From positions 107 through 64,106 of the forward strand of contig CALGPL010000038.1 in assembly GCA_937960595.1 (NCBI GenBank): a DNA stretch of 64,000 nt, given 5' to 3'. This document shows, in pieces, positions 14,614 to 64,000 of this stretch (positions within the stretch are counted from its first letter, which is position 1; each line of letters starts with the position of its first letter). The stretch comes from an uncultured Anaerolineales bacterium. Lineage in GTDB: Bacteria; Chloroflexota; Anaerolineae; Anaerolineales; Villigracilaceae. The notes under the pieces are model-generated. The model did not search any database and had not been told where the DNA came from. It saw only the letters and a program-made list of their open reading frames with translations. The translations under genes and the position numbers were made by a program.

Positions 14614-14619
14614 TTTTTG

Positions 14620-18527: not shown

Positions 18528-18571
18528 GAGTTCCTCCTGCTCTGGATGAGAGACGGTCGGCCAGATGCGGC

Positions 18572-27146: not shown

Positions 27147-27147
27147 C

Positions 27148-31500: not shown

Positions 31501-31928
31501 ATGTCCACCGCGCGCGGCTCGAGCGGGTCGTGATGGTGGACGCGCTCGACCGCCGCCCGCACCAGGCCGCGCGCCTTGATGGTCGCCTGTTCGCGGTTGT
31601 TGATGACCCACGAACATTGCTCGCGGATGTTGGCCATCTGGAAGAAGAACGGATTCAATCCGGCATCGGCGCAGGCCTGGCGGAAAGTCGGCTCGTGCAT
31701 CAGCGGCGAGCAGGAGGCGACCACGACGCGGTTCAGGCCGTATTCTTGGATGTCTTGTTTGATCAACTCCTGGCCGGGGTTGGAACACATGTAGGTGTAG
31801 TCGCGCGCCACCACCACGCCGTCCAGTTCGCGGGCGAAGCGGGCGACGTCGGCCACGTCCACGGTGGCGGCGATGTTCGTGCCGCAGTGACAGACATACA
31901 CGCCGGTCTTGACCTTTGCGCGGTTCAT
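28530..31928 (-). CDS. hdrA: HdrA-like flavoprotein with an inserted GltD/NfnB-like NAD(P)H:FAD module (1132 aa)
   Basis: The HdrA N-terminus is VYVCHCGTNIAATVDV...VVGGGIAGIDASL...MDCAACILTPK. The insertion is APCRSACP...CGRVCNHPCEEAC...VAVIGAGPAGLTAG...VVLGAGDVALD...FAAGD. The HdrA body then resumes with HCVGSRD...YCSRVCCMYSLK and a C-terminal 2x4Fe-4S domain. Confidence 0.88.
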   Translation of the reverse strand: MNRAKVKTGVYVCHCGTNIAATVDVADVARFARELDGVVVARDYTYMCSNPGQELIKQDIQEYGLNRVVVASCSPLMHEPTFRQACADAGLNPFFFQMANIREQCSWVINNREQATIKARGLVRAAVERVHHHDPLEPRAVDMTQSVLVVGGGIAGIDASLRLADAGKQVYLVERDSSIGGHMGQLYKTFPTMDCAACILTPKMVSAGRHPNITLLAYSEVEAVSGYVGNYNVRVRRKARYVKEDVCAGCGQCAEVCPVEVINPFEIGLSKRKAVYRNTPQAVPGAYAIEKRGVAPCRSACPTDQRAEGYIALIHARRYADAYWAIRREHPFPSICGRVCNHPCEEACTRGQVDEPVSIMALKRFVADWAYAHRDELPHMRDKSLVGTPFQHHHPPTGKKVAVIGAGPAGLTAGLDLVRLGHKVTVFDALPVAGGMMRVGIPPHRLPYDRLDWEVQQIVDEGVELRLNTRVDDIPGLFQKGYDAVVVATGAHSAQKLNIPGSDHPDNWLSLDLLRRACLGEPLDLSGREIVVLGAGDVALDSARTAIRLGRPKVKIVCRGMRASFNELHEAEAEGVEIIKNRVFKEIVVKHDKIVGVMCLEAEVGGIVNGQRQVREIPGSEHIIPCDMVIWALGQRPDFSFLPEDGSIAIRYPIGLWANEEMMTTRPGVFAAGDLRRGTTFFVVDAIAEGHRVARCVDRYLNGGEGVPEPVLPPKAELTPAEIEAKFAGGDVSRAGRIPIRTLPPQERENNFREVDQTMTEEEALAEAARCLRCGVCSECLECEAACDRGAIDHNMQDETVELTVGAIILATGFKDFDPARVPELNYGKLDNILTALQFERLINSGGPTQGKVLLKNGKPPKSIAIVHCVGSRDHNYNEYCSRVCCMYSLKLSHMAREYLGVEVHEIYRDIRAFGKGYEEFYKHAAGMGVHFYHGRIQAIEQKGAKLRVRWNEAFHGQPSHVDVDMVVLATGFEPQPDTAKLAALFGVNRSADGFFLERHPKLAPVETVTQGIYLAGACQGPKDIPDSVAQAGAAAAAALSLLDQGAILLDPIVAEVNPLQCAGCGQCAAACPYGAITLQDGLAKVNIFVCKGCGTCAGACPNKAMSIVHFNDRELVAELLGALVDAPLEVA

Positions 31929-33934
31929 CGCAGCGCCTCCTCGAGAATGCCTTCAATTTCGGCCATGATTTGCACTTCGGTAAAGCCGTTCTGGGTGGCT
32001 GCCCCGGCCGGACAGGCTGCCGCGCACGCTCCGCAGCCTTTGCACAGCACCTCGTTGACGTGCGCCACCAGCCGCCCGTTCTCTTGGCGCATTTCGATGG
32101 CGTGATAGGGACACAGCCCCTCGCAAGTGCGACAGCCGCCGCATTTTTCGGTCTGGATGAAGGTGGTGAACGGCTCGAGGAAGACCGAGCCGGCGTCCAT
32201 CAGCGAGAGCGCCGCGGCGGCCGCGGCCGCGCCCTGGGCGACGCTGTCGGGGATGTCCTTCGGCCCCTGGCAGGCGCCCGCCAGGAAGACGCCGTCGGTG
32301 GCCGTCTCGACCGGGGCCAGTTTGGGGTGCCGCTCGAGGAAGAAGCCGTCGGCGCTGCGGCTGACGCCGAACAGGACGCCGACCTGATGCTGGTCGGGCT
32401 GAGGCTCGGCGCCGGTGCTCAGGACAACCATGTCCACGAGCGTCTCGCGCGGTTTGCCGGTGTAGACATCCTCCATCAGGACCGCCAGACGCCCGTCATG
32501 CCTCTCGACGCGGATGCCCTGGTCGAAGCGGTAGAATTCGACGCCGTGCTGCTCGGCGCGTTCGTAGAAGGCCTCGTAGCCTTTGCCGAAGGCGCGCATG
32601 TCGCGGTAGAACTCGACCACCTCGGCCCCGACGTATTCGCGAATCATTTGGGCCAGTTTGAGCGAATACATGCAGCAGATGCGCGAACAGTATTCGTGCG
32701 GCCGGCCCTCGCTGACCGAGTCGCCGCGGCTGCCCACGCAGTGAATGATGGCGATCTTACGCGGCTTGCTGCCATCCTTGAGGCGCACCACGCCGCTGGT
32801 CGGCCCGCCGGTGTTGATGAGGCGCTCCATCTCCAGGCCGGTCAGGACGTTGTCGAGGAGGCCGTAGCCGTACTGGGGGGCGCGGCGCGGGTCGAAGGTC
32901 TCGTAGCCGGTTGCCAGGATGATGGCCCCGACTTCGATTTCCAGATGCTCTTCCTTCTGCTCGAAGTCAATCGCCCCGCGCGGGCAGAATTTCTCGCAGG
33001 CGCGGCATTTGCCGGTCTTGAAGTAGGCGCAGTTTTCGGTGTCTATGACCGGCACGCGCGGGATGGCCTGGGGAAAGGGCGAGTAGATGGCCGCCCGCGT
33101 CCCCAGCCCGAGGTCGAACTCGGAGGGGATTTTCTTCCAGGGGCATTTTTCGGTGCAGGTGCCGCAGCCGTTGCACAAATCCTCGCGCACGTAGCGCGGC
33201 TTGCGGCGCACGGTGACGGTGAAATTGCCCACGTAGCCGGCTACCGCCTCGACCTCGCTGTAGGTCAGCAAGGTAATGTTCGGGTGGTGGCCGACGGAGA
33301 CCATCTTGGGGGTCAGGATGCAGGCGGCGCAGTCCATGGTGGGGAAGGTCTTGAAGAGTTGCGCCATGTGCCCGCCGATGCTGGGCTGGCGTTCGACCAG
33401 ATAGACCTGCTTGCCGGCGTCGGCCAGGCGCAGGGCGGCCTCGATGCCGGTGATGCCGCCGCCGACCACCAGGGCAGCCTGTTTCAGACCCACCGAGCGG
33501 CTCTCCAGTTGGCGGTGATAGGCGACGCGATGGACGGCTGCCCCCACCAGCGACATGGCCTTGCGCGTGGCGGTCGAGCGGTTATCGGCAATCCACGAGC
33601 AATGTTCGCGGATGTTGGCCATCTGGAACAGGAAGGGATTCAAGCCGGCGTCGGCGCAGGCCTGGCGAAAGGTCGGCTCGTGCATCAGGGGCGAGCAGGA
33701 GGCGACGACGACGCGGTTCAGTCCCTCGCGCCGGATGTCTTCCTTGATGAGCGTCTGACCGGGGTCAGAACACATGTAGGTATAGTGGCGCGCCACGGCG
33801 ACATGCGGAAGCGTGCGGGCGTATTCGGTCACCGCTTCCACGTCCACGGTTGCGGCGATGTTGGTGCCGCAGTGACAAACGTAAACGCCCACGCGCGGCG
33901 ATTCCGGCGCAGGCGTCGGGCTATCGGGTTTCAT
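31925..33934 (-). CDS. hdrA: HdrA-like flavoprotein (canonical length, 669 aa)
   Basis: VYVCHCGTNIAATVDV...VVGGGITGIEAAL...MDCAACILTPK...HCVGSRG...YCSRICCMYSLK...CGGCRTCEGLCP...CKGCGACAAACP. The start is at MKPDSP (cat 33932-33934) with a GGAAGAGGG SD. Confidence 0.9.
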   Translation of the reverse strand: MKPDSPTPAPESPRVGVYVCHCGTNIAATVDVEAVTEYARTLPHVAVARHYTYMCSDPGQTLIKEDIRREGLNRVVVASCSPLMHEPTFRQACADAGLNPFLFQMANIREHCSWIADNRSTATRKAMSLVGAAVHRVAYHRQLESRSVGLKQAALVVGGGITGIEAALRLADAGKQVYLVERQPSIGGHMAQLFKTFPTMDCAACILTPKMVSVGHHPNITLLTYSEVEAVAGYVGNFTVTVRRKPRYVREDLCNGCGTCTEKCPWKKIPSEFDLGLGTRAAIYSPFPQAIPRVPVIDTENCAYFKTGKCRACEKFCPRGAIDFEQKEEHLEIEVGAIILATGYETFDPRRAPQYGYGLLDNVLTGLEMERLINTGGPTSGVVRLKDGSKPRKIAIIHCVGSRGDSVSEGRPHEYCSRICCMYSLKLAQMIREYVGAEVVEFYRDMRAFGKGYEAFYERAEQHGVEFYRFDQGIRVERHDGRLAVLMEDVYTGKPRETLVDMVVLSTGAEPQPDQHQVGVLFGVSRSADGFFLERHPKLAPVETATDGVFLAGACQGPKDIPDSVAQGAAAAAAALSLMDAGSVFLEPFTTFIQTEKCGGCRTCEGLCPYHAIEMRQENGRLVAHVNEVLCKGCGACAAACPAGAATQNGFTEVQIMAEIEGILEEALR

Positions 33935-34082
33935 ACGAACACCCTCTTCCTGGTGAGCACGAAAGTAATCCACACCTCGGCCACCTCCTTGGCGATGTTT
34001 GGTTACTTTACATTGTTGGTGTTTCCGAGGAGAGAAATCAAGTGATATTTGTCACAAAAAATAGGGAGAATCTGTAAGAACA

Positions 34083-36185: not shown

Positions 36186-38705
36186 TCAACGAGAGACACA
36201 CTGGCTGCCTGTCCAGTTGCACTGGTCTTTATGAGCGATGCAGGCGAAATAGTCGTACGCGGCGCATGGATCGGTCGGAGGGGTCACCGGCTCCGGCTCG
36301 GGCGGCGGTTCGGTGCTGCAGGATGGAATGGAAGCAATCCAGGCGGGGAAGTCGTCGAAGGATTGGCAGATCAAGCCGCCTCCATCGGGCTGGAGACACA
36401 ATTCGGCCCGGCCCGGATCGCTCCGCCGCGGGCCGGTGCAGTAAAGCCGGCCGGGGATCGTCGGGTGGACGCTGCATGAGTAAGAACCGATCTCGTCGCT
36501 GGCGGCATAGGTGTAGGCTGCTCCCGGCACCAGCCATGATAAGTCGGTGTCCACAATGAAATAAATGTTGACGTCATCGTGGCAACCCACAGCCACAATG
36601 CGCCAGGAGGCCCCTTCTTCTCCGGGCGGCGTTCCACACAGACTGACGTCGACCGTGCTATGCATTTCGGAGCCGTCTTCCAGGTACGCATCGAAGGTCA
36701 GCAAGGTCCCCGGATCGCCCGGCAAGCCCATGCACATGTAGTCGCAAGGCCCTACCTCTCTACAGGTGAGAGGCGTACCAGAAGCCTCGGCAAATACCAA
36801 GGCCGATTCGCATGGCTCATAGCGCAATTCGGCAGAAGGTTCATAAACAGGAAAACACACCCCCTCTAGGCTGAAACGCAACTCGGGCCTGTCGGGGCAG
36901 TCCATAATCGTGACCGGCCAGTCGCTGCAAGACCCGCCGCCGAGACAGACGGTGACGGTGACCGTACTCCCCGGCGTGTCGGGTATCTCGCAGAGATAGG
37001 AGACGGGGCTCATCTCCAGACAAGAGAGCGGAGCGCCGGCTATCGAGACGCTCTCCAGCGTGCTGCCCGGCAGCGTGTCGATAATCACGATCGGGTAAGA
37101 GGCCGGGAACACATCCCAACAGCCGGCGAACACCGCTAAGGGAGTGTCGGAGACGGGACAGTCATCTGGCACGGCGGCGACCGTCCACCAGGCGTAACTC
37201 GTGCCGCTGTCATCATGCCCTTGCATCTCGAACGAATACAATGCGCCAGGAGCGCGGCCCGGCAGAACGCAAAGCAGCGTCGAAGGAGAAGTCTGCGTGC
37301 AAGCCGCGTCGGTGTACAACATTCCGTCCAGGTATTGCACCCGTTCCCAGAGAATCGGCGGCGTTGAAGTAAAGGTCACCAAGACCGTCCCATCCACGTC
37401 GGACGGGCAACTCACCTCCACCCTGACGTCGGGCGGCCAGGCGCCAGCCGGGCAATCATGAGGCACCGGCGGGTGCCCGACCCCAAATGTGCTGCCCGGT
37501 TCGGTATAGACTTCCACATCGTAGAATGCCAGCAGGTCATTATCCGGCGGAATCGGCCCGTTGCATTGCAGACCGCGCAGGGCTTCATCGTAATAGCAGT
37601 CGAAGACCGTGCCGTTGACCTCAACCAGGAAAGTAGAAAGGCCTTCTGAACTATCCGCGCCGATGAAGAGGTACATGATCCCGGCCGGATCGGGACAGGA
37701 AACCAGAATCGGCCCAAACGAGGCCCAGGTTGTCCCCCGCGGCTCCTCCACCCGCTCTCCCCCCTCGTCCAAGCCGCTCGGCGGGACCCATTCGTGGTAG
37801 TCGGGCGGCGGGTAATATCCGTGCGGCAACGCTTCTCCCCCGGCCACGCAGCGGAAGCCAACATCATCATAGCCGCGGTGAGGATTGGCGCCCAGGCGGG
37901 TTGCGGCGCGCATTTGAACCGCCTCGGAGTACAGACCGCCGCCGCGCACCACTTTCAGATCGCCATAGTAAGGTCCCAGGGGGTTGATGGTCGGCGAGAG
38001 ATTATAGTAATCTTCGTCATACCAATCGTTCACCCATTCCCAAACGTTGCCGGCCATATCCCAGACGCCGTAAGGGCTGTTGCCCAAAGCATACGAGCCA
38101 ACCTGGACGGTATCGGCCGGCATCTGACAGCCGAACATGTTGACGCGGTTACAGGCCGGTTCGTCGCTCCCCCAGGGGTAGGGCCAACTCTCGGTCCCGC
38201 GCGCTGCCAGTTCCCACTCGGCCTCGCTCGGCAAGCGCCCGCCTGCCCAGAGGCAGTAATCATGCGCCATCAGCCAGTCCACGCCAGCCACAGGGTGATC
38301 GGCATAGGCAGGGTCGTCGTAGTGGGAGGTGGGGCCGCTCGGCAGGATGCGAATCGGAAGACAGGCGCCGGCATCTACACAGCGGGCATACATTTCACTG
38401 GTAACTTCATGGGTGTAGATGTAGAAACCGTTCAGCGCCACTTGATGACGAGGCGACTCATCGGCATCGGCCTGCGTGTCGGCCGGGTCGCTGCCCATCC
38501 AGAATCGACCGCCGGGAATGAGAATGGTCTCCGCCCCATCGGTGTTCGTCGGGCCGCTCGGAACGGTGGGCGTAAAATCATCGGCCATTCCTTCGGCAGT
38601 TCCTGTTCCTCTGCCGGTCCCCCCCGGCCAGTTGCAAGAGGCAAGCAACAAGATGAGGAGGAACAATACTGTGCTCCCAAACAGGAAGTACTTAGATTTG
38701 CACAT
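36186..38705 (-). CDS. Lipoprotein with an FGE-sulfatase (SUMF1/EgtB/PvdO-type) domain followed by five tandem Cys-patterned modules
   Basis: The lipobox is LLLLASC. The FGE-type domain reads IPGGRFWMGS...ESPRHQV.L..FYIY.HEVT...Y..C...G.C...HPV.GVDW..A..YC.WAGGRLPSEAEWE.AARG...YPWG...GV.DMAGNVWEWV.D.Y...Y...P..NP.GP..G...V.RGG. The repeats occupy ORF residues 357-820. Confidence 0.85.
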   Translation of the reverse strand: MCKSKYFLFGSTVLFLLILLLASCNWPGGTGRGTGTAEGMADDFTPTVPSGPTNTDGAETILIPGGRFWMGSDPADTQADADESPRHQVALNGFYIYTHEVTSEMYARCVDAGACLPIRILPSGPTSHYDDPAYADHPVAGVDWLMAHDYCLWAGGRLPSEAEWELAARGTESWPYPWGSDEPACNRVNMFGCQMPADTVQVGSYALGNSPYGVWDMAGNVWEWVNDWYDEDYYNLSPTINPLGPYYGDLKVVRGGGLYSEAVQMRAATRLGANPHRGYDDVGFRCVAGGEALPHGYYPPPDYHEWVPPSGLDEGGERVEEPRGTTWASFGPILVSCPDPAGIMYLFIGADSSEGLSTFLVEVNGTVFDCYYDEALRGLQCNGPIPPDNDLLAFYDVEVYTEPGSTFGVGHPPVPHDCPAGAWPPDVRVEVSCPSDVDGTVLVTFTSTPPILWERVQYLDGMLYTDAACTQTSPSTLLCVLPGRAPGALYSFEMQGHDDSGTSYAWWTVAAVPDDCPVSDTPLAVFAGCWDVFPASYPIVIIDTLPGSTLESVSIAGAPLSCLEMSPVSYLCEIPDTPGSTVTVTVCLGGGSCSDWPVTIMDCPDRPELRFSLEGVCFPVYEPSAELRYEPCESALVFAEASGTPLTCREVGPCDYMCMGLPGDPGTLLTFDAYLEDGSEMHSTVDVSLCGTPPGEEGASWRIVAVGCHDDVNIYFIVDTDLSWLVPGAAYTYAASDEIGSYSCSVHPTIPGRLYCTGPRRSDPGRAELCLQPDGGGLICQSFDDFPAWIASIPSCSTEPPPEPEPVTPPTDPCAAYDYFACIAHKDQCNWTGSQCVSR

Positions 38706-39099
38706 TTCACCCTCCCTTAGAGAGAAAAGAACCATTGACTTGATCGTTTTCTCGGCCTTACCTGCCGCGGGATTCAATCCCCGTCTCAGGGCTTGGCAGC
38801 CTGCTCAAAGGGCTGAGAGATGCATTGAGCCGCCTTCACCCTTCGGGTATAGGCAGGCGGCTTCTACGATCTCAGTCGGGGGGATGGAGCCCCCGCTGTT
38901 GGTTCAAAAGTGTCAGGGGCTAGAAAAGTATGATCCTTTTGCATTATATATCCTTACAGAATTGTAAAGCGTCCCCAATTTTTCCTAATTCTTCAAGGAG
39001 AGCATCGTCTATGCCGGCGCGTTCCAACTGCAGCCCGGCAGGAGCAGGAAAAGGGCAAAGAAGGCAGAATGGACACGTTTCACGCCGGGGAGGCAAATG

Positions 39100-54782: not shown

Positions 54783-56774
54783 CTAGGCGAGGTTTTGGAC
54801 GCTCTCGAACAGTGCCTCGAACGGCGTGCCGCGCCGGTAGAAGGCGAGCGGCTGACCCAGTGGACAGGCGACGCGGTGCTTTCCGGCTCCAATCGGCTGG
54901 CCGTCGAACAGGCCGATCCATTCGCCCTCGGGGATTTCGATGCGCAGTCGTCTGGCTCCCGGACGCATAACCGGGAAGACGAGCAGATCGTCGCCGAGGA
55001 AATAGGCGTCGGCTTTGTTGTGCCAGCGAGGGTGGGCGTGGGCGAGGCAGAAGGGGCGCATCATGCCCAGACCGCTGCGCTGGGCCTCGTCCGAGACGTG
55101 TTTCAGATAAGGGGCCAGGGCGGCGCGCAGACGCGTCAGGCGGGCGAAGTGGGCCATCGTCTCGGCATCCTGCCAGGGCTGGACGCCTGCCCAGGGTCGG
55201 TTGCCCTCATGCGTGCGCAGGACGGGCGAGAGGGCGTTGGCCTCGCACCAGCGGAAGAAGACCTCTCGCGAACGTTTGATCCACTTGAACGAGAAATAGC
55301 CGCCGGCGTCGGTGTGGTAGTACTGGATGCCGGAAAGACAGGCGCTCAGCCCGCCGCGCACGCCGGAGGGGAATCCGTCGTGCCGGTTCCAGTAGACCAC
55401 CTGGTCGCCGCCCCAGATCATGTTCGTGAAACGGGTCGAGGCGGTGTAACCGGCGCGGTGGAAGATAAGCACTTCGTCTTGCAGACCGGCTTCCTCGACC
55501 GCCTGGCGGTTCAATTGCGCCCACAGGAGCGGGTAGAGATTGTGCATCTCGGCTCCGCTGCGTCCATCGTGGAAGCGGGCGTCTTCGGGGATGTCCTCGC
55601 CGTAGTCGGCCATCCAGCCGCGCATCCCCAGGGCGAGCATGTTCTTCTGGAGGATGTCTTCCTTGAACCAGCGCACGGCTGCGGGATTGGTCAGGTCGAG
55701 GATGCCGACCTGGAAGCCGGCGATGCTGGCGATGAGCGCTTCGCCGTCGGGGCCGCGCACCAGGTAGCCGCGTGCGCGGCTCAGGCGGAAGTAGTCGCTC
55801 TCGGCGTTGAAGTAGGGGTTGACGTAGGTCAGCCAGCGAATGCCCTGCTCGGCCCGCCGCCGGATTTCATCCGCCAGGCCGGGATAGAGTTCGGAATCGA
55901 CGATCCAGTTCCAGTACAGGCGCTTGCCCTGCCAGAAGATGCGCACGCCGGCCCAGTCCTGGGTCCAGATGCCGGTCAATTTTGCCCCGGCGGCCAGCAG
56001 GCGGTCCACCGTCTCGCCGACGTAGGGCAAGCCGCCCTGAATGCCGAGGATGCCGCCCTCGAAGACCCAGTCGGGCGGCGGCGGCATGAGGCCGGTCCGC
56101 TTGGCCAGTTTCCCGACCAGCGTTTGGAGGCTTTCTCCGCCGAAGAAGCGCAAGCGCGCCCCGGCCGGGACCTCCAGGCGGTGACGGTCGCGGGCGGTGA
56201 AATCCAGCACGCTGTAGCCGCCGGTCTCGATCAGGCAGCCGTAGCCGCGCGTCGAAAGGAAGGAGGGCTGCGGAAAGTAGGTGTTCCAGTACTCGCCGCC
56301 GGCGTCGGCGACCCAGTTGGCCAGCCAGGTGTAGGGCCGCAGGGGATGGCGGCCGAGGCCCATTTCACTCGTCCAGATGGGGAAGCGCCGCCCGCGCAGG
56401 TTCAAGGTCCCGAATTGCACCCCTCCGCCATAGACCGCCTCGCCGCGTGCGGCGGGCAGGTTCAGGCGGGCGCAGTTGAATCCCTGCGGGAGGTGGATGC
56501 GGAGGGTGAAACCGTCTGGCTCGGCCTCGAAACGCAGCGCGGCCTGCACTTCTCCCTCGAACAGGCGCAGACCGTCCGGCTGCGTCTCGCAGCCGCGCAG
56601 CGCCAGCCGGTTTTCGACCCGCTGGCGGATGCGGTGCATACCGCCGCCGGTGCTGTGGTAGTGAAAGTCGGCCTGTCCGATTTCCAGGAGCGGGCGGCCT
56701 GCCGTGTGGCGCAGAATCTCCAGGCCGTCGAGGTAGATGAAAGTGGCTCCCTCGCGGGTCTCGATCTCGAACAT
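54783..56774 (-). CDS. yihQ: GH31 glycosidase with sulfoquinovosidase (YihQ-type) signature residues
   Basis: 663 aa with IQGG, TQDWAGVRIFWQGKRLYWNW, GWMADYGE, WGGDQ and DAGGYFSF. Residues Q246/Q272/R285/W288/Y493 and D390/D457 sit at a constant 15-16-residue offset from the E. coli YihQ positions I recall (Q262/Q288/R301/W304/Y508, D405/D472). Confidence 0.7.
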   Translation of the reverse strand: MFEIETREGATFIYLDGLEILRHTAGRPLLEIGQADFHYHSTGGGMHRIRQRVENRLALRGCETQPDGLRLFEGEVQAALRFEAEPDGFTLRIHLPQGFNCARLNLPAARGEAVYGGGVQFGTLNLRGRRFPIWTSEMGLGRHPLRPYTWLANWVADAGGEYWNTYFPQPSFLSTRGYGCLIETGGYSVLDFTARDRHRLEVPAGARLRFFGGESLQTLVGKLAKRTGLMPPPPDWVFEGGILGIQGGLPYVGETVDRLLAAGAKLTGIWTQDWAGVRIFWQGKRLYWNWIVDSELYPGLADEIRRRAEQGIRWLTYVNPYFNAESDYFRLSRARGYLVRGPDGEALIASIAGFQVGILDLTNPAAVRWFKEDILQKNMLALGMRGWMADYGEDIPEDARFHDGRSGAEMHNLYPLLWAQLNRQAVEEAGLQDEVLIFHRAGYTASTRFTNMIWGGDQVVYWNRHDGFPSGVRGGLSACLSGIQYYHTDAGGYFSFKWIKRSREVFFRWCEANALSPVLRTHEGNRPWAGVQPWQDAETMAHFARLTRLRAALAPYLKHVSDEAQRSGLGMMRPFCLAHAHPRWHNKADAYFLGDDLLVFPVMRPGARRLRIEIPEGEWIGLFDGQPIGAGKHRVACPLGQPLAFYRRGTPFEALFESVQNLA

Positions 56775-56820
56775 GCTGCCTCCAAAGGACAGGACGGGCG
56801 TGGCAGCCCGTCCTGTGTTC

Positions 56821-58242
56821 TTATGCCTGCTTGCGGATGAAGAGCGCCGCGCCCGCCGACAGGAGGAACATGACGCCGAACATGGCCATCATCAACACGT
56901 AGCCGGACGAATCGGCGATCACGCCGCCGATGTAAGCGCCGATGGCGCCCGCCCCGGCCCCGGCCAGGTTCTGCAGCCCCAGGTATTCGCCGGCGCGCTC
57001 TTTGGGGATGATGTCGGTGCCGAGCGCCCAGGAGGCCACGTTGAACAGGGCATAGGCCAGGCCGATGATAGCGGCGGCCAGGTACATCAGCGGAATGTTC
57101 GGCCCAACGACCATCACGGCAACCCCGACCGCCCCGATCAGCCCGCTCAGGGAGGTCAATAGTTTGCGGTCGTAGCGGTCCGAGAGCCAGCCGGCGATCA
57201 GCCCGAAGAGGATGACGAAGCCGCCCAGCACCATCGGCAGCAGACCGGCCAGACCGGCAGCCTGCTGGCCCGGCAGGTCGAACTTTTCCTGGATGAAGTA
57301 GAGCAAGAAGGAAGCGATGTTATTGATGGCCACCAGCGCCGCCAGACGGCAGATGACCAGCCAGGTGAAGGACGGGTTCTGCAGGCTTTCCTTGCCCAGA
57401 TGAACGGTCAGGCTGGCGAAGATGCCTGCCACCACCGCCACCAACATCGCCACCACCCCGATGGCGCCGAAGGTGAAGCGCGAGGCGCCCTCCAGGGCCG
57501 GCAGGCTCAACTTGACGATTTGCCCCAGCCCGAGGATGATGAGGGTGAAGACGGCCGTCATCAGCACCAGGCTCAGGAACGGCTTCCAGTTCAGCGGGCC
57601 GGGGGCGGTCTTGGGGCGCTCCTCGCGCACCAGCATGGTCAGGCCCATGCAGATCAGCATGGCCACGACGGTCACCAGCAGGGCAGTCGGCAGATTGCCG
57701 CGGCTGACCATCGGGGCGATCACCAGCCCGACCAGCACCAGCGGCAGCGGCACCTCCAGCAGCATCTTGACGCCCGAGGCGATGCCGCGCTTCGGCTGCG
57801 GCACCACGTCGGGGATCAGGCCCTGCGTCCCCGCCTGAGAGAGGTTCGAGGAAACCATCGAGAGCAGATAGACGCCAAACAGGACGGCGTAGCCGGTCAT
57901 GCCCTCCAGCGCCGCAATCCAAGCCATGCTCAGGATCAGCCCGGCTTCCAGGATGGCTCCCAAGAAGATGAACGGTCGCCGGCGGCCCCATTTCAGCCGC
58001 GAGTGGTCGCTGAGCAGGCCGAAGAGGGCTTGCATCAGCAGGGCAGTCATCAGCGCCCACAGGCGGATGGTGCCGTAGTAGGTGCCTTTCTGCTCCTCGC
58101 CAACGAAGGTCTGCACCAGCAGCGGGACGACCAGCCCGGCCAGCACCTGCGAGCGCAAGGTCAGAGCGAACCAGTTGGTGTTGATGAAGAGGTAGTCGTA
58201 CCAGTGGAGTTTACGTTCGGGGGAGAGGACTTCGGCAGTCAT
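56821..58242 (-). CDS. MFS / GPH-family (glycoside-pentoside-hexuronide-like) sugar transporter
   Basis: 473 aa with about 12 TM helices. LSDHSRLKWGRRRPFI matches the GPH signature loop. Confidence 0.8.
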   Translation of the reverse strand: MTAEVLSPERKLHWYDYLFINTNWFALTLRSQVLAGLVVPLLVQTFVGEEQKGTYYGTIRLWALMTALLMQALFGLLSDHSRLKWGRRRPFIFLGAILEAGLILSMAWIAALEGMTGYAVLFGVYLLSMVSSNLSQAGTQGLIPDVVPQPKRGIASGVKMLLEVPLPLVLVGLVIAPMVSRGNLPTALLVTVVAMLICMGLTMLVREERPKTAPGPLNWKPFLSLVLMTAVFTLIILGLGQIVKLSLPALEGASRFTFGAIGVVAMLVAVVAGIFASLTVHLGKESLQNPSFTWLVICRLAALVAINNIASFLLYFIQEKFDLPGQQAAGLAGLLPMVLGGFVILFGLIAGWLSDRYDRKLLTSLSGLIGAVGVAVMVVGPNIPLMYLAAAIIGLAYALFNVASWALGTDIIPKERAGEYLGLQNLAGAGAGAIGAYIGGVIADSSGYVLMMAMFGVMFLLSAGAALFIRKQA

Positions 58243-58342
58243 GCGATTCTCCTTGTTTGGAAGAAATGACTTGCTCTGGCATGATTATATAAGAATTTTC
58301 GCTCGGCGAGTCTGATTCGGGCGGCTTTTTTGGCAGGCGGTA

Positions 58343-58475
58343 TAATAGGCTTTATTCGGAATCCTCGCCAAGACGCGCAGAACGCCAAGATGCCCGAAAA
58401 GGTTGTTGGGAAATGCCTTTGGCGGCCGAAATCCTTCCTGGTGTCTTTGCGCCTTGGCGGCGAAATGGACGCTTG
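58343..58475 (-). repeat. Family A dispersed element, copy 4 (inverted orientation), in the divergent promoter region
   Basis: The reverse complement reads ...ttcgccgccaaggcgcaaagacacc...ggccgccaaaggcatttccc...ttcgggcatcttggcgttctgcgcgtcttggcgaggattccgaataaagcctatta and aligns with 13008-13149. Confidence 0.8.
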
Positions 58476-58498
58476 CATCCCGCTCAGGGAGTCTTTTC

Positions 58499-59845
58499 AT
58501 GAAATATCGTTTGGGCTTCGTCCCGCTTGCCCGCCCGACCTTCGACATGCTTCTGGCCCGAGAAGTCGCCGCCGCCGCCCGCAGCCGTCTCGCCGCGGAC
58601 TTCGACCTGCTCGACCCGCTCGGGCGTGATCCTGGCTGGGAGTTGGTCACCGACCTCTCTGCCGCCCGCCTGGTCGCCGACTGGCTGAAGGACGAACCGC
58701 TCGACCTGCTGGTCGTCTTCCAGGCCACCTTTGCCGACAGCACCCTCGTCACCGCCCTGGCCGAGAAGGTGGACGCTCCGCTCTTCCTGTGGGCGGTCCC
58801 CGAAGCGCGCACGGGCGGCCGATTGCGGCTGAATTCGCTGTGCGGGGTCAATCTGGCGGCGCACGCCCTCAAATTGCGCGGCCAGAACTACGACTACGCC
58901 TATGCCGCTCCCGACTCTCCCGAAACGTCAGAGAAAATTCGGATTCTGGCCGCGGCCGGCAACGTCCGCCGCCGGCTGCGCGGCACCCGCCTGGGCGCGG
59001 TCGGCGATTCCCCGGCCGGCTTGGACTCCTGCGCCCTGGATGAATCCGCCCTGGCTGCCCTGGGCCTGGCGGTCGAGCGCCTCGACCTGGCGGAGGTCTT
59101 CGCCGCGGCGCGGGCGCAATCCTCGGCGTCCCTGACGGACCTGCGCGCCCGTTTGACCCCCCGCCTCGACGGCCTGGCCGAGGTGGAGCAGCCCGCCCTC
59201 CAAGGCTCGCTGGGGGCGACTCTGGCGCTCCGGCAGATGGCCGCCGAAAAGGGCCTGGCAGGCCTGGCCGTGCGCTGCTGGCCGGAATTTTTCACCGACC
59301 TGGGCTGCGCTGCCTGCGGAGCCGTCTCGCTGCTCAGCGACGAGGGCCTGCCTTGCTCGTGCGAGGCCGACATCAACGGCACGGTGACGCAATTGATTTT
59401 GCAGATGTTGAGCGGCGAACCGGCCATGGGCAGCGACCTGGTCGCGGTGGACGAGGCCGAGGACTGCGCCGTCCTGTGGCACTGCGGTCTGGCGCCGCTC
59501 TCGATGGCCGATCCGGCCGTCCGCCCGCGCGCCGGAATCCACTCGAATCGCAAGTTGCCGCTGGTGATGGAATTTGCCCTCAAGCCCGGTGTGGTGACCC
59601 TCGCCCGTCTGAGCCGCGCCGGCGGCACCCTGCGCCTGGTCATCGGACGCGGCGAAATGCTCTCCGCCCCGCCGTCCTTCTCCGGCACCTCCGGCGTCGT
59701 GCGCTTCGAACGGCCGGCGCGGGACGTGCTCGACCTCATCGTTTACGAGGGGCTGGAACATCATCTCTCGCTGACCTATGGCGACTATCTGGAGGAACTT
59801 CAGGCGCTGGCCCGCTTGCTGCGCTTGCCCGTTTTACATCTCTGA
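58499..59845 (+). CDS. L-fucose/L-arabinose isomerase-family (COG2407-like) aldose-ketose isomerase
   Basis: 448 aa. RCWPEF...GLPCSCEADINGTVTQLIL...WHCG matches the metal-site region of FucI/AraA-like proteins. The start is at the ATG at 58499. Confidence 0.75.
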   Translation: MKYRLGFVPLARPTFDMLLAREVAAAARSRLAADFDLLDPLGRDPGWELVTDLSAARLVADWLKDEPLDLLVVFQATFADSTLVTALAEKVDAPLFLWAVPEARTGGRLRLNSLCGVNLAAHALKLRGQNYDYAYAAPDSPETSEKIRILAAAGNVRRRLRGTRLGAVGDSPAGLDSCALDESALAALGLAVERLDLAEVFAAARAQSSASLTDLRARLTPRLDGLAEVEQPALQGSLGATLALRQMAAEKGLAGLAVRCWPEFFTDLGCAACGAVSLLSDEGLPCSCEADINGTVTQLILQMLSGEPAMGSDLVAVDEAEDCAVLWHCGLAPLSMADPAVRPRAGIHSNRKLPLVMEFALKPGVVTLARLSRAGGTLRLVIGRGEMLSAPPSFSGTSGVVRFERPARDVLDLIVYEGLEHHLSLTYGDYLEELQALARLLRLPVLHL

Positions 59846-59861
59846 CTGTTTTGGAGGAACG

Positions 59862-60524
59862 ATGAAGTTTTTTCTCGATTCTGCCCGTCCCGACGAAATC
59901 CGCTACGCCATGGATTTTCTGCGAATCGACGGCGTGACGACCAACCCGCGCCATGTCCAGGCGGCCGGCAAACCTTTCCTGACTACCCTGGGCGAGATTG
60001 CCCGCCTGGTGGAGGGCCGCCCGCTGACCGTCTCCGTCGAGGTCAATCCGCACCACGCGCAGGCGGAAGACATGGCCGCCGAGGGCCACAAACTGGCCGC
60101 GCTCAGCCCGAACTTTGTCATCAAGTTGCCTGCCACCGAAGCCGGTTTCAAGGCCATCGTTTTGCTCAAAGAACGCGGCATCCGCGCCAACCTGACGCTG
60201 GTCTTCTCGGCCGTCCAGGCCTTGCAGGCCATGCGTTTGGGCGCTTTCTACGTCTCGCCGTTCATCGGCTGGAAGGAGGCCAACGGCGAGCCGACGGTGC
60301 AACTCATCGAGGAGATCGCGGCCATCCGCGATCAGTACGGATTCACAACCGAGATCATTGTCGCTGCCCTGCGCAACGGCCGGCAGATCGTCGAGGCGGC
60401 AGTCGCCGGGGCCGATATCGTCACCGCCGGGCTGGCCGTCTATCAGGAGGCGCTCGATCATCCGTATACGCGCGACGGCTTGCGCAAGTTCCAGGAATTC
60501 TGGGACAAGACGCCCTACGAATAA
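59862..60524 (+). CDS. Type-3 transaldolase / fructose-6-phosphate-aldolase family protein with an altered phosphate-binding motif
   Basis: MKFFLDSARPDEI...IDGVTTNP...FVIKLP (Schiff-base Lys)...NLTLVFS...YVSPFIGWKEANG. GGAGG SD at 59853. Confidence 0.85.
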   Translation: MKFFLDSARPDEIRYAMDFLRIDGVTTNPRHVQAAGKPFLTTLGEIARLVEGRPLTVSVEVNPHHAQAEDMAAEGHKLAALSPNFVIKLPATEAGFKAIVLLKERGIRANLTLVFSAVQALQAMRLGAFYVSPFIGWKEANGEPTVQLIEEIAAIRDQYGFTTEIIVAALRNGRQIVEAAVAGADIVTAGLAVYQEALDHPYTRDGLRKFQEFWDKTPYE

Positions 60525-60583
60525 CCGCCGGATCCCGGACGAAAAACGCCGGTTTGGCTATTTTGATCACAAGGAGGCATTCC

Positions 60584-60871
60584 ATGAAATATGGCATTCT
60601 CATGCACGAACCCCACGATGACGTCGGGGTGGCGGTGATGGACCTGACCGCCGGTTCCGAGGTCGGCGCGGCCACGCTCGAAGGCCAGCCGGTCGGGACC
60701 CTGACCCTCGCCGAGGACATTCCCCTCGGCCACAAAGTCGCCCTGCGCGACCTGACAGCCGGGCACAAGGTGCTCGAATACGGTCGGCCGATCGGCGCGG
60801 CGACCCAGGACATCGTCCGCGGCGCGCACGTCCACGTCCACAATCTCAAGACGCTGAGGTGGTCGAAATGA
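60584..60871 (+). CDS. SAF-domain small subunit of a split UxaA-family dehydratase. Candidate (2R)-sulfolactate sulfo-lyase alpha (SuyA-like).
   Basis: 95 aa. [11 protein letters not shown].......G......[23 protein letters not shown]...I..G.HVHVHN is a SAF/UxaA N-terminal domain. AAGGAGG SD. Confidence 0.6.
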
Positions 60872-62031
60872 CTCTCCCCGACATTCCCCTGTTCGCGTAC
60901 CGCCGTCCCAACGGCAAGATCGGCATCCGCAACCATGTCGTCATCCTGCCGGTGGACGACATTTCCAACGCGGCTGCGGAGGGCGTCGCCCGCCTGATTC
61001 GCGGCACGATTGCCCTGCCGCATCCCTACGGCCGTCTCCAGTTCGGCCCCGACCTCGACCTGACCTTCCGCACCCTGATCGGCGCCGGCCGCAACCCCAA
61101 CGTCGCCGCCGTGGTGGTCATCGGCATCGAACCCAATTGGACCGCCAAGATCGTCGCCGGCATCGCCGAGACCGGCAAGCCGGCCGCCGGTTTCAGCATC
61201 GAGCGCGCCGGCGACTTGAAGACCATCGAGGCCGCCGCCCGCAAGGCCCAGGAGTTCGTCCAGTATGCCACCGAATTGCAGCGCCAGCCGGTCGCTTTCG
61301 CCGAGATGACCTTCTCGACCAAATGCGGCGAGTCCGACACGACCAGCGGCCTGGCCTCCAATCCGACGGTCGGGCGCGCCTTCGAGCGCCTGGAGGCCGC
61401 CGGCGCCACCCTCATCTTCGGCGAGACGACCGAGGTCACCGGCGCCGAGGACAAGATCGCCGAACAGTGCGCCACGCCCGAAGTGCGCGCCGAATTCTTG
61501 CGCCTCTTCCAGGCCTATCAGGATTTCGTCAATTCGGTGGATGCCGACCTGCTCGGCTCCCAGCCGACCCAGGGCAACATCCGCGGCGGGCTGACCACCA
61601 TCGAAGAGAAAGCCCTCGGCAACGTCGAGAAGATGGGACGCTGCACCATCCGCTCGGTCTTGCAGCCGGCCGAGGAACCCAAAGGCCCCGGCCTGCATTT
61701 CATGGACTCTTCCAGCGCAGCGGCCGAGATGGTGACCCTCTGCCTGGCGGCCGGTTCGGTGGCGCACTTCTTCACCACCGGGCAGGGCAACGTCATCGGC
61801 AATCCGCTCCTGCCGGTCATCAAACTCTCGGCCAACCCGCTGACGGTGGCGACCATGTCCGAGCATATCGACGTCGATCTGACCGGCTTGCTGCGTTTCG
61901 AGATCAACCTCGACCAGGCCGCCGATCTGGCGCTGCACATGCTGGCCCGCACCATCAACGGCCGCCTGACCGCCGCCGAAACCTTGCGTCACGATGAATT
62001 CGTCCTGACCAAACTCTATCGCAGCGCCTGA
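60868..62031 (+). CDS. Large subunit of a split UxaA-family dehydratase. Candidate sulfolactate sulfo-lyase beta (SuyB-like).
   Basis: 387 aa with an ATGA overlap with the small subunit. It reads [10 protein letters not shown]...[14 protein letters not shown]...[12 protein letters not shown]...[17 protein letters not shown]...HFFTTGQGN. Confidence 0.6.
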
Positions 62032-62070
62032 CGGATTCTGCCTGTTCGACCGACCTGAGGACGGTCGCTT

Positions 62071-63339
62071 GTGGCTTCCACCTACATCCTTCCCTACGGG
62101 AAGACCTCTCTGACCTTCGGCCTGCCTGCCGGGCGGACGGCCGACCTGCTTCTGCCGCGGCCGTCTGCCCCGGCCCCCGACCCGGCGGCGGCCGTCCGGG
62201 CCGCCCTCGACAGGCTGCTGGGCGGAGTCCGCCTCGAGCAGTTTGGCGGGGTTCGTTCGGCGGCCGTCGCCGTCAACGACAAGACCCGCCCGGTTCCCCA
62301 TGCCCTTCTGCTGCCGCCGCTGCTGGCGCGGCTGGAGGCCCTCGGCCTGCCGCCCCAGGCGATTACCCTCTTGGTCGCCACCGGCCTGCATCCGCGCATG
62401 GAGGCGGACGAATTCGCTGCCATCCTGCCGGAGGAGGTCCTGCGCCGCTATCCGGTGGTCTGCCATGACGCCCGCGACCCGTCCGGCTTGGTTGAAGTCG
62501 GCGTGACGCGGCGCGGCACGCCCGTCTGGGTCAACCGCCGCTACCTCCAGGCCGACCTGCGCCTGGCGGTCGGCAACATCGAGCCGCATCAGTTTCAGGG
62601 ATTTTCGGGCGGCGTCAAGAGCGTGGCCATCGGGCTGGCGGGCGAAGCGACCATCGTCCGCAATCATGCCTGGATGCTCGACCCGGCCGCTCGCCTGGGC
62701 GAGTACGAGACCAACCCGGCCCGTCAGGATGTCGAGGAAATCGGGCGCCTCATCGGCGTCCACTTTGTCTTGAATGCCATTCTGAACGGCAAGCGGCAGA
62801 TCGTGTCCGTCCTGGCCGGCGAACCGGAAGCGGTGATGCGCGCCGGCATTCCGCTGGCGCGGCGCCTGTCCGAGGTCCAGGTCACCGCGCCCTATGACCT
62901 GGTCATCGCCTCGCCTGGCGGTCATCCCAAGGATATCAACCTCTACCAGGCGCAGAAGGCGCTGGCCCACGCCGCCCTGCTGACGCGGCCGGGCGGGACG
63001 GTCCTTCTCGCCGCCGCCTGCCCCGAAGGGACGGGCAGCCCGGAGTACGAGGCCTGGGCGCGTCAATGCACCTCGCTCGAACAGGTGGTGGAACGTTTCA
63101 TGACGGAGGGATTCCGCATCGGCCCGCACAAGGCCTATCAGATCGCCCGCGACGCCCTGCGCCTGAACCTGCTCCTGGTCTCGGACATGCCCGCCTCCTT
63201 TGTCCGCTCGCTTCTGCTGACCCCGGCCGATTCGCTCGAAGCGGCGCTGACCCAGGCGCTGACCTCTCTGCCGCCCGCCGCGCGGATTGCCGTCCTGCCG
63301 CACGCCGCCTCGGTGATTCCACCCTCGGGATTGTCCTAA
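62071..63339 (+). CDS. LarA-family nickel-pincer-nucleotide-dependent 2-hydroxyacid racemase/epimerase homolog
   Basis: 422 aa with a GTG start. NDKTRP (D70/R73), ATGLH107, EPH173QFQGFSGGVK183, RNH199 and YQAQK lie within one residue of the L. plantarum LarA positions I recall (D72/R75, H108, H174, K184, H200, Y294-Q295-K298). Confidence 0.85.
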   Translation: MASTYILPYGKTSLTFGLPAGRTADLLLPRPSAPAPDPAAAVRAALDRLLGGVRLEQFGGVRSAAVAVNDKTRPVPHALLLPPLLARLEALGLPPQAITLLVATGLHPRMEADEFAAILPEEVLRRYPVVCHDARDPSGLVEVGVTRRGTPVWVNRRYLQADLRLAVGNIEPHQFQGFSGGVKSVAIGLAGEATIVRNHAWMLDPAARLGEYETNPARQDVEEIGRLIGVHFVLNAILNGKRQIVSVLAGEPEAVMRAGIPLARRLSEVQVTAPYDLVIASPGGHPKDINLYQAQKALAHAALLTRPGGTVLLAAACPEGTGSPEYEAWARQCTSLEQVVERFMTEGFRIGPHKAYQIARDALRLNLLLVSDMPASFVRSLLLTPADSLEAALTQALTSLPPAARIAVLPHAASVIPPSGLS

Positions 63340-63351
63340 GGAAAAATGTCC

Positions 63352-64000
63352 ATGATTTATCTCGATTATGCCGCCACCACGCCCGTGGACGAACGCGTCT
63401 TCGAGGCGATGCGCCCCTTCTTCAGCGAAACGTTCGGGAACCCGTCCTCGGTTCACCGCTACGGACAGCGCGCCGAGGCGGCGGTGGACGAGGCGCACGA
63501 GACCGTCGCCGCCGTCCTGAACTGCCGCCCGGACGAAATCATCTTCACCTCCTGCGGCTCGGAATCGGACAACCTGGCCCTGCGCGGCGCGGCCCTGGCC
63601 AGGCGCGAGCAGACCGGCGCGGACCGGATTCTGACCAGCCGCGCCGAACATTCCGCCGTCAGCAAGACCGCCGCCGACCTGGAGCGGCATTACGGCTTCC
63701 GCGTCGAGTGGCTGCCGGTGGATGAATTCGGCCGCATCACGCCGGAGACGGTGGCGCAGGCGCTTGACGGGGAGACGGCCCTCGTCTCGGTCATGTATGC
63801 CAACAACGAAATCGGCACGCTCAACCCGATCGCCGAAATCGCCGCCGTCTGCCGCGCCCGCGGCGTCCCCTTCCACACCGACGCCGTGCAGGCGGCGGCC
63901 TACTTGCCGCTGGACGTGCAGGCTCTGGGCGTGGATTTGCTCTCGCTGGGCGCGCACAAGTTCTACGGCCCGAAGGGCGTCGGCGCCCTCTACGTCCGCG
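63352..64000 (+). CDS. Cysteine desulfurase (NifS/IscS class V aminotransferase), 3-prime truncated by the window end
   Basis: [16 protein letters not shown]...FGNPSS.H..G...........R...A..L.C...EIIFTS.GSESDN...NNEIGT...HTDAVQA...[13 protein letters not shown]. Confidence 0.9.

Follow-up and report, generated by a model that had tools for sequence, protein, structure and literature searches.

The island described here occupies the end of a 64,000-nucleotide stretch (referred to below as the window) from an uncultured Anaerolineales bacterium of the phylum Chloroflexota (contig CALGPL010000038.1). It consists of seven tightly packed genes (54783-63339), which the open reading frame list and a Pfam scan resolve into two divergent groups. 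The minus strand encodes a GH31 protein, a YihQ-type sulfoquinovosidase (54783-56774, 663 aa), and an MFS/GPH-like transporter (56821-58242, 473 aa; Pfam MFS_1 and MFS_2), which is presumed from its gene context to import sulfoquinovose (SQ) or SQ-glycerol. An AT-rich intergenic region of 256 nt (58243-58498) with predicted promoter-like sites separates this pair from the plus-strand genes. These encode an SftI/SqvD-like SQ isomerase of the FucI family (58499-59845, 448 aa; Pfam Fucose_iso_C), a 6-deoxy-6-sulfofructose (SF) transaldolase of the TAL/FSA family (59862-60524, 220 aa), the small subunit SuyA (60584-60871, 95 aa; Pfam SAF) and the large subunit SuyB (60868-62031, 387 aa; Pfam GD_AH_second and GD_AH_C) of a predicted (2R)-sulfolactate sulfo-lyase, and a LarAH5 nickel-pincer-nucleotide 2-hydroxyacid racemase (62071-63339, 422 aa), proposed to act on sulfolactate. 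It is very probable that these genes form an SQ island in which transaldolase-type sulfoglycolysis (sulfo-TAL) is combined with SuyAB. With less confidence, the island is best read as an 'extended' sulfo-TAL pathway that leads from SQ to pyruvate and sulfite and employs the LarAH5 enzyme as a sulfolactate racemase.

All genes, strands and coordinates reported in the first-pass annotation of this DNA are present in the open reading frame list and the Pfam scan, and a second gene caller returns identical genes on a Logan contig of the same sequence (11.5 kb, ending within the cysteine desulfurase gene that follows larA). The plus-strand spacings given there (16, 59, -4, 39 and 12 nt from the isomerase gene on) are exact, and the ATGA said to couple the two sulfo-lyase genes is read directly at 60868-60871, where it overlaps the end of suyA and the start of suyB. 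The G+C content of the island (0.65-0.69) is the same as that of its flanks; thus, nothing suggests a recent acquisition. In near-identical relatives (L093-L095), the gene set, its order and the flanking genes are all kept, which indicates that the island is more than a chance assembly, and variants of the set are found in dozens of species-level genomes. Within the divergent region, a sigma-70-like site is predicted on the minus strand (58371-58342) and a perfect TATAAT on the plus strand (58341-58346); no inverted-repeat operator was found between 58243 and 58498. The 46-nt gap between the transporter and sulfoquinovosidase genes holds a perfect 11-bp stem with a 6-nt loop (56789-56816; ACAGGACGGGC...GCCCGTCCTGT), which may serve as an intercistronic mRNA stabiliser or attenuator. 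An Rfam scan of the window returned two tRNAs only, both distant from the island.

As the first-pass annotation had supposed, the GH31 protein is, judging by homology and active-site residues, a sulfoquinovosidase rather than a glucosidase of a general kind. Its score against the NCBIfam equivalog model for E. coli YihQ (NF007746) exceeds the cut-off (651 bits against 553), and its closest solved structures are the sulfoquinovosidases of A. tumefaciens and E. coli (5OHY and 5AED; E ~1e-150), whereas the xylosidase YicI matches at 1e-40. In particular, the residues Q, R, W and Y stand at the positions of E270, R283, W286 and Y491 of the A. tumefaciens enzyme (AtSQase), the E. coli counterpart of E270 being Q288, and both catalytic Asp motifs (WMADYGE and IWGGDQ) are kept. 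The pair of transporter and YihQ genes recurs beside two other suyAB-larA clusters (L019 and L028; 69-77% and 67-69% identity). Versions of the cluster that carry an ATP-binding cassette (ABC) transporter (L005 7517-9661; L003, L014, L019, L023, L039 and L044) encode a YicI/xylosidase-like GH31 protein, which in L005-type clusters scores 494 bits against NF007940 and just 234 against the YihQ model. It may belong to a sulfoquinovosidase lineage that has yet to be recognised, or be another kind of glycosidase.

The closest solved relative of the transaldolase is BmSF-TAL (8BC3; E 4e-72), ordinary transaldolases following at 1e-43. Alignment of the two proteins reveals that the catalytic residues D6, E61 and K89, the sugar-orienting N111 and S133, and the sulfonate-orienting W138-A-R172 are retained, with identity at nine of the nine positions checked. 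The W-A-R motif has been described for SF transaldolases (PMC11659671), in which it takes the place of a phosphate-binding Arg; the ordinary FSA-type paralogues encoded in Spirochaete, Verrucomicrobia and Planctomycete loci have R138 instead. Seven loci from these groups (L009, L020, L026, L031, L034, L038 and L063) share a divergent aldehyde dehydrogenase and an FSA/TalC-type aldolase with Arg at the position of Trp138 in the sulfonate motif. In most of them suyAB-larA is present too (on the short contig of L020, larA alone is seen), and they seem to reach sulfolactate via a different upper route. The isomerase has a single NCBIfam match, the SftI model NF048012, which aligns end to end (300 bits, E 2e-89) and has a cut-off of 700. 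Because of this shortfall, the protein is filed as SftI-like on the grounds of homology and synteny and not as a proven equivalog. A search of solved structures with the isomerase gave zero matches. Its gene is syntenic with that of the SF transaldolase in all but one of the 22 related loci (L003-L087) that have a W138-type transaldolase (21/22).

The split UxaA-family pair is SuyAB, by sequence comparison a predicted Fe(II)-dependent (R)-sulfolactate sulfo-lyase. When SuyB was compared with the translated sequences of 72,556 plasmids, the distribution of matches was bimodal: 13 records showed 60-64% identity, and all others, the remaining UxaA paralogues, showed 39% or less. The first-pass assignment of the pair to SuyAB therefore stands, since the protein groups with SuyB from validated suy and hps contexts. 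The top plasmid match is SuyB of C. pinatubonensis (64% identity), the genes of which lie directly after hpsN, hpsO, an MFS gene and a gene for an HpsP-like dehydrogenase; the hpsN-hpsO-suyAB arrangement is the published cluster for conversion of 2,3-dihydroxypropane-1-sulfonate (DHPS) to sulfolactate and its cleavage by SuyAB. In P. versutus (62% identity), suyAB is preceded by a gene for a GntR regulator and followed by a PF03601 "putative sulfate exporter" (SuyZ-type), which is the suyR-AB-Z arrangement of Paracoccus. SuyB of Desulfitobacterium is 61% identical to that of the island, and the small subunit shares 41-46% identity with the small subunits of the Cupriavidus, Paracoccus and Desulfitobacterium enzymes. 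The architecture, with a 95-aa SAF subunit and a 387-aa GD_AH subunit encoded in tandem, matches that of known SuyAB proteins (SuyA about 8-10 kDa, SuyB about 42 kDa), and close homologues of SuyB carry the JGI label (2R)-sulfolactate sulfo-lyase subunit beta. A second SAF and GD_AH pair, 35-39% identical to SuyB, is found at the suyAB position, between sulfo-TAL genes and an H-Q-F larA (a signature described below), in ten loci (L013, L022, L024, L035, L047, L048, L050, L055, L062 and L064). It is either a very divergent sulfo-lyase or another lyase of the same pathway.

LarA of the island passes the cut-off of NCBIfam model NF052595 ("nickel-dependent malate racemase, LarAH5 family"; 539 bits, cut-off 462). 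The protein aligns over its full length with solved LarA structures and keeps all catalytic and cofactor residues of lactate racemase; residues D70, R73, H107, H173, K183, H199, Y292, Q293 and K296 are invariant in an alignment with 24 relatives. Moreover, the anion-binding motif G-x-H353-K354 is kept, and the signature of the protein reads HQF ... GPHKAY. It has been proposed that the lysine of G-x-H-K binds the distal carboxylate of malate; this invariant residue would bind a sulfonate equally well. LarA shares 39-51% identity with group-5 members, including 39% with the characterised enzyme Mar1, and 35% with one member of group 6. The H-Q-F signature follows the catalytic His in every suyAB-linked LarA (41/41) and is also present in the LarAs of Desulfitobacterium, Desulfovibrio, Solidesulfovibrio, Moorella and D. 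fairfieldensis. The aligned group-6 member (Mtc_1545; the group that contains Mar2) has H-Y-F, and a sister LarAH5 clade with no suyAB within 10 kb has mostly H-H-F. This sister clade includes A. thermophila ANT_14630 and proteins of Leptolinea, Bellilinea and Thermanaerothrix, and the H-H-F subgroup may have a different substrate. In 21 loci, larA has a gene for an alpha/beta-hydrolase (Hydrolase_4, ~257 aa) downstream of it, mostly as its direct neighbour (e.g., L085 11266-12039, L007 14516-15292), the suyAB-free H-H-F Anaerolineaceae clade included; the product could be a lipase for sulfolipid.

The name attached to NF052595 derives from a single assayed enzyme, Mar1 (Dhaf_4417) of Desulfitobacterium hafniense, which in vitro racemises malate and epimerises tartrate (Desguin et al. 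2020). Its Km for L-malate is 55 mM, a value that led the authors themselves to doubt that malate is the substrate, and its kcat/Km is ~500-fold below that of the true malate racemase Mar2 (Desguin et al. 2020). In the same study, group 5 of the LarA homologues (LarAHs) consists mostly of proteins from sulfite and sulfate reducers (Desulfitobacterium, Desulfovibrio, Desulfomicrobium, Desulfohalobium and Desulfomonile), together with Moorella, Anaerolinea and Thermotoga. Furthermore, its Table S1 gives COG2721 "altronate dehydratase" as the commonest group-5 neighbour (19 genes for 15 LarAHs), with TctC and TctA next. Several species with a group-5 LarAH have been named as SuyB carriers (Burrichter et al. 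2018), and sulfolactate respiration has been reported for D. hafniense DCB-2, the source of Mar1.

These observations agree with gene order outside the Chloroflexota. A Desulfitobacterium protein 92% identical to Mar1 is encoded in the order suyA-suyB-larA-tctC-tctA-tctB-gntR-Ldh_2, where SuyB shares 61-62% identity with SuyB of the window and of Cupriavidus. In Solidesulfovibrio, larA lies immediately 3' of genes for DhpA-like and SlaB-like proteins, with TauE and Ldh_2 genes adjoining; the DhpA-SlaB locus of Desulfovibrio sp. DF1 is a DHPS locus that makes (S)-sulfolactate. Thus, three separate gene contexts tie LarAH5 to sulfolactate. The LarAH5 gene of Neomoorella thermoacetica is flanked only by an 85-aa GD_AH remnant on the opposite strand (L092 7766-8023), and its suyAB partner appears to have decayed. 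In Desulfovibrio fairfieldensis, an AIRC-domain LarB-like gene (L097 14326-15099) lies 4 kb from an H-Q-F larA. Genes for a tripartite tricarboxylate (TTT) transporter, for an ABC transporter of the sulfonate type and for two alcohol dehydrogenases precede this larA, and an RraA-like gene comes after it; the whole is possibly a gut-bacterial DHPS/sulfolactate locus.

The conservation of the neighbourhood was assessed in 80 loci from species-representative genomes, retrieved with a profile built from LarAH5-like proteins, onto which the proteins of the window and of three related loci were mapped. Where LarA shares at least 54% identity and enough upstream DNA is present, a suyAB-type pair lies directly upstream of larA in 32 of 40 loci; 24 of these pairs include an orthologous SuyB, and in eight its place is taken by a paralogue of 38% identity. 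In 13 loci, genes for the SF transaldolase and the isomerase accompany suyB. The fullest set (L005) comprises genes for a ROK regulator, the isomerase, an ABC transporter, an aldehyde dehydrogenase, the transaldolase, a GH31 protein, SuyA, SuyB and LarA. A PF03601 SuyZ-type exporter gene stands between suyB and larA in four loci (L017, L019, L028 and L039), and a weaker PF03601 match overlaps suyA in L044. As the first-pass annotation's reading implied, orthologous loci carry sulfonate genes, encoding the SuyZ-type exporter, DsrAB, SlaB-like dehydrogenases and TauE. The suyAB-larA arrangement is found in Chloroflexota, Spirochaetota, Verrucomicrobiota, Planctomycetota, Actinomycetota (Acidimicrobiia), Acidobacteriota and Bacillota, and Desulfobacterota also have group-5 LarAs; in total, LarAH5 proteins with H-Q-F adjoin suyAB or dhpA-slaB in at least eight phyla.

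Two further features of these loci concern the fate of sulfite and the genes around suyB. On a 1.17-Mb contig (L003 15973-21167, JGI 3300043177), a full dsrA-dsrB-dsrD-dsrC-dsrM-dsrK set and a PF03601 transporter gene lie 6 kb from a Chloroflexota-type sulfo-TAL/suyAB cluster that has no larA and no aldehyde dehydrogenase gene within 10 kb. The dsr set suggests that some such organisms respire the sulfite derived from SQ. A GlmS-like gene (glutamine amidotransferase and SIS domains, ~597 aa) directly follows suyB in three loci (L003 11278-13071, L007 11313-13103, L014 ~7991) and in L007 and L014 is placed between suyB and larA.

The specific homology of the GH31 protein, the transaldolase, the isomerase and SuyB leads to an 'extended' sulfo-TAL pathway ending in SuyAB. 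In this pathway, the MFS protein would import an SQ glycoside, from which the YihQ-type GH31 enzyme would free SQ. The SftI-like isomerase would yield SF, and the SF transaldolase would move the non-sulfonated C3 unit to glyceraldehyde-3-phosphate or erythrose-4-phosphate, leaving (S)-sulfolactaldehyde (SLA). A dehydrogenase encoded outside the island would oxidise SLA to (S)-sulfolactate, which the LarAH5-type enzyme would racemise to the (R) form through transient hydride abstraction at C2 by the nickel-pincer nucleotide. Finally, Fe(II)-dependent SuyAB would split (R)-sulfolactate into pyruvate and sulfite. According to reviews, PMC9594981 among them, sulfoglycolysis gives (S) enantiomers and SuyAB acts on (R)-sulfolactate, and the only inversion systems described there are the dehydrogenase pairs SlcC/ComC and HpsO/HpsP. 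The tests reported above show the family and subfamily of each protein, the conservation of specificity residues in the glycosidase and the transaldolase, the orthology of SuyB and the conserved synteny. We infer on which substrate the racemase acts, how the stereochemistry fits together, which enzyme oxidises SLA and what becomes of the sulfite. The proposal of the first-pass annotation, which joined the same enzymes into one route and gave LarA the stereoinversion step, thus holds for the YihQ, SF transaldolase and SuyAB functions by specific tests; the isomerase is SftI-like, below the model cut-off, and the stereoinversion by LarA is supported through an inferred substrate. It is reasonably likely that LarA of the island interconverts (S)- and (R)-sulfolactate. 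A slightly more cautious wording is appropriate for the whole H-Q-F subgroup of LarAH5, which is somewhat more likely than not to be a nickel-pincer-nucleotide-dependent sulfolactate racemase; in that case, the name 'malate racemase' would be wrong for it.

Several points weigh against the extended pathway. The functions of all island proteins are assigned from sequence alone, and the isomerase lies far under the SftI equivalog cut-off. The curated NCBI rule (NF052595) would name LarA a malate racemase, and Mar1 does racemise malate weakly. The existence of a LarAH5 sister clade with no suyAB within 10 kb means that family membership alone implies no role in sulfolactate metabolism. Furthermore, the (R)-specificity of this SuyAB clade is assumed by analogy with the Paracoccus and Chromohalobacter enzymes. 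A further point concerns missing genes. The island has no gene for an SLA dehydrogenase, a sulfite exporter or reductase, or a regulator, and no larBCE. The other 54 kb of the window have no gene for an aldehyde dehydrogenase, AOR, TauE/SuyZ, SlcC/ComC (Ldh_2), Dsr/Asr, a regulator or LarBCE; larB, larC and larE are absent from the Pfam-scanned genes of the 64-kb window. The first-pass annotation had regarded the pathway as apparently complete and had suggested that an SLA dehydrogenase and a sulfite exporter might lie beyond position 64000. The source contig ends at 64,590, and the region was extended through three near-identical contigs with 95-96% SuyB identity. There, larA is followed by genes for a cysteine desulfurase and a PDDEXK protein, mnmA, a cold-shock gene and a peptidase gene, and the same ygiQ and rpoC genes lie upstream. 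The missing pathway genes are not found downstream in these contigs either, so the completeness claim was not borne out, and the flanks delimit the island to exactly seven genes. Among the 22 related loci with a W138-type transaldolase, just five include an aldehyde dehydrogenase gene; an unlinked SLA-oxidising enzyme thus seems to be the rule in this group. It is above all the lack of a gene for SLA oxidation that weakens the case for a complete pathway.

Alternatively, the island might be incomplete, an ordinary sulfo-TAL system dealing with the upper half of SQ in which unlinked enzymes reduce or excrete sulfolactaldehyde, and SuyAB and LarA mainly use imported sulfolactate of either handedness, supplied by the environment or by neighbours. 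Besides the missing SLA dehydrogenase, which is absent from the island, the window, the downstream DNA of close relatives and most related clusters, this explanation draws on Desulfitobacterium, where the partner of suyAB-larA is a TTT-type uptake system and no sugar genes adjoin, and on the fact that cross-feeding of C3 sulfonates is the textbook situation. However, the single transporter of the island is paired with the sulfoquinovosidase, and no TTT or other carboxylate or sulfonate importer was found there; suyAB-larA trails the isomerase and transaldolase genes at operon-like gaps of 16-59 nt, and five related loci place the aldehyde dehydrogenase gene beside that of the transaldolase. 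The incomplete-island explanation is therefore unlikely, though it deserves more weight than those that follow.

It is also conceivable that LarA acts on another 2-hydroxy acid, either by epimerising a sulfonated aldonic acid at C2 or by converting a dead-end isomer and so protecting the cell, while this SuyAB clade takes (S)-sulfolactate directly; taken together, these two forms are improbable. They gain some ground from the assumed stereospecificity of SuyAB, from loci in which the genes are separated (L003 has suyAB without larA, and L010 has larA without suyAB beside the transaldolase) and from other LarA families that epimerise gluconate and mannonate. However, the E/V/A/H signature of gluconate epimerases is missing from LarA of the island, which shows the anion-binding G-H-K signature found in C4-diacid racemases, the sulfo-TAL route makes no sulfonated aldonic acid, and in Solidesulfovibrio larA also trails slaB, the gene of a sulfolactate-making enzyme. 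An equally small probability attaches to a malate (or tartrate) racemase as named by NF052595, its place next to SuyAB then serving some other purpose, or to a UxaA-type pair serving as a hydroxy-dicarboxylate or sugar-acid dehydratase: although LarA passes the family cut-off, Mar1 acts on both compounds in vitro, and altronate and galactarate dehydratases belong to the UxaA family, the high Km of Mar1 and its authors' own doubts argue otherwise, SuyB is 61-64% identical to SuyB from hps, suyZ and TTT sulfonate contexts and at most 39% to other paralogues, the neighbours are sulfonate genes (for sulfoquinovosidase, SF transaldolase, SuyZ, TauE, DhpA/SlaB and Dsr), and genes for malic enzyme, fumarase or hexuronate use are never among the neighbours in the examined loci.

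Immediately after larA lies a gene for an IscS/NifS-type cysteine desulfurase (63352-64000, plus strand, truncated where the window ends; matches to Pfam Aminotran_5 and to NifS/IscS models). The 12-nt adjacency noted in the first-pass annotation is correct, and the membership in the operon's pathway that went with it is not. In close relatives, the gene is followed by a PDDEXK_3 gene and then mnmA (tRNA 2-thiouridylase; L093 8017-10890, L095 12017-14690), and it follows larA in none of the 80 other genomes. The pairing with mnmA indicates housekeeping tRNA thiolation and not a role in the pathway. A function as sulfur donor for LarE-type cofactor synthesis was considered and rejected on the same two grounds.

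Elsewhere in the window, a minus-strand run (25315-33973) encodes an NAD-binding/DHODB Fe-S protein (277 aa), an Fer4_22 protein (333 aa), an MvhD/FlpD-domain protein (532 aa) and two large HdrA-like flavoproteins (1132 and 682 aa). Its first two genes (25315-27146) resemble asrB and asrA; an AsrAB sulfite reductase was rejected because no NIR_SIR subunit is present and the neighbours are HdrA- and MvhD-like. The run is probably an electron-bifurcating complex of the Hdr/Mvh or Flx type. A minus-strand gene at 36186-38777 encodes an 863-aa protein, the FGE-sulfatase domain of which is like that of formylglycine-generating enzymes. The window also holds genes for a four-subunit-type pyruvate/2-oxoacid:ferredoxin oxidoreductase (13163-15735) and a class I Fe-S fumarase (17907-19459). 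Both are consistent with an anaerobic lifestyle, and the oxidoreductase could take the pyruvate derived from SuyAB.

Sulfoquinovose, an abundant sulfosugar of plants, is produced in amounts of approx. 10 billion tonnes a year. According to reviews, its degradation is usually divided between an organism that cleaves the sugar and a separate one that desulfonates the product, since genes for desulfonation and for sulfoglycolysis are seldom passed on together. Islands of the present type place sugar cleavage and desulfonation in one operon of uncultured, probably anaerobic Chloroflexota. If the extended pathway is correct, Chloroflexota with such islands would mineralise SQ alone, without cross-feeding. 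Comparative evidence names an enzyme other than SlcC/ComC for the stereoinversion of sulfolactate; if this assignment is true, one nickel enzyme would replace SlcC/ComC in anaerobes of at least eight phyla, including sulfite and sulfate reducers of the gut and the environment, nickel would be required in part of the organosulfur cycle, and the curated name 'malate racemase' would have to be corrected. Predictions of which gut and sediment sulfidogens use SQ-derived (S)-sulfolactate and (S)-DHPS would change as well. The assignment of the LarAH5 enzyme is directly testable, as a protocol for expression and cofactor loading exists and the Km for the nominal substrate is puzzling.

Among the closest known systems is the sulfo-TAL (SFT) pathway of Priestia megaterium DSM 1804 and P. 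aryabhattai SOS1, which consists of SqvD/SftI, SqvA/SftT, SlaB/SftD and YihQ/SftG. The island has in common with it the GH31 sulfoquinovosidase, the FucI-family isomerase and a type-3 transaldolase with the same catalytic residues and the W-A-R motif. However, the isomerase is only distantly related (300 bits against a cut-off of 700), and whereas the Bacillus clusters have an SLA dehydrogenase and an exporter and excrete sulfolactate, the island has SuyAB and LarA in addition and is without the dehydrogenase. The first-pass annotation was aware of no description of this composition, but the presence of sulfo-TAL and SuyAB genes in one cluster has already been noted for Chloroflexi and Thermotogae (Wei et al. 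2022, PMC9594981, citing Liu et al. 2020); the role of LarA alone appears undescribed. The 'extended' sulfo-TAL clusters of that review come from the same phylum and embody the same idea, with a predicted use of all six SQ carbons. They are bioinformatic only, and the available part of the review contains no word on the inversion of (S)-sulfolactate or on a LarA homologue. Our literature search found no paper that links sulfolactate with LarA-type nickel-pincer enzymes, the work of Liu et al. 2020 being covered through the review that cites it. In a 2024 survey of LarA proteins, LarAH5 is still given as a malate racemase, a December 2025 paper by the group behind the 'extended' clusters cites SlcC/ComC alone for the inversion of sulfolactate, and a 2026 survey screens sulfolactate use by SuyAB, SlcC and ComC only.

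The SuyAB enzymes of Paracoccus pantotrophus, Cupriavidus pinatubonensis and Desulfovibrio sp. DF1 have the same SAF and GD_AH two-subunit build. The large subunits of known enzymes are 61-64% identical to that of the island, and the PF03601 SuyZ-type partner occurs in several related loci as well. Proteobacterial suyAB genes accompany hpsNOP, suyR/suyZ or slcC/comC and serve imported C3 sulfonates, whereas those of the island lie within a sugar-catabolic operon. A single organism that combines sulfosugar cleavage with SuyAB and releases sulfite is also known in Paracoccus wurundjeri, from its sulfofucolytic/sulfolactate sulfo-lyase pathway (PMC12421959), in which the SLA dehydrogenase was likewise not identified. 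That pathway differs in its Entner-Doudoroff-type upper part for sulfofucose, its SlcC/ComC inversion and its aerobic, proteobacterial host. Mar1 of D. hafniense DCB-2 and LarA of the island belong to the same NCBIfam family and share H-Q-F, G-H-K and the suyAB neighbour; they are 39% identical, the assays of Mar1 concern carboxylates only, and its cluster has a TTT transporter and Ldh_2 in place of sulfosugar genes. The SlcC/ComC pair of Chromohalobacter salexigens (HpsO/HpsP for DHPS) performs the task proposed for LarA, the conversion of the (S) to the (R) form for SuyAB. It does so with two NAD(P)-dependent dehydrogenases and free sulfopyruvate, whereas LarA would be one unrelated nickel-pincer enzyme with an enzyme-bound hydride. 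If correct, the racemase assignment would add a new substrate to those of a known superfamily, and a known step would be taken over by a non-homologous enzyme.

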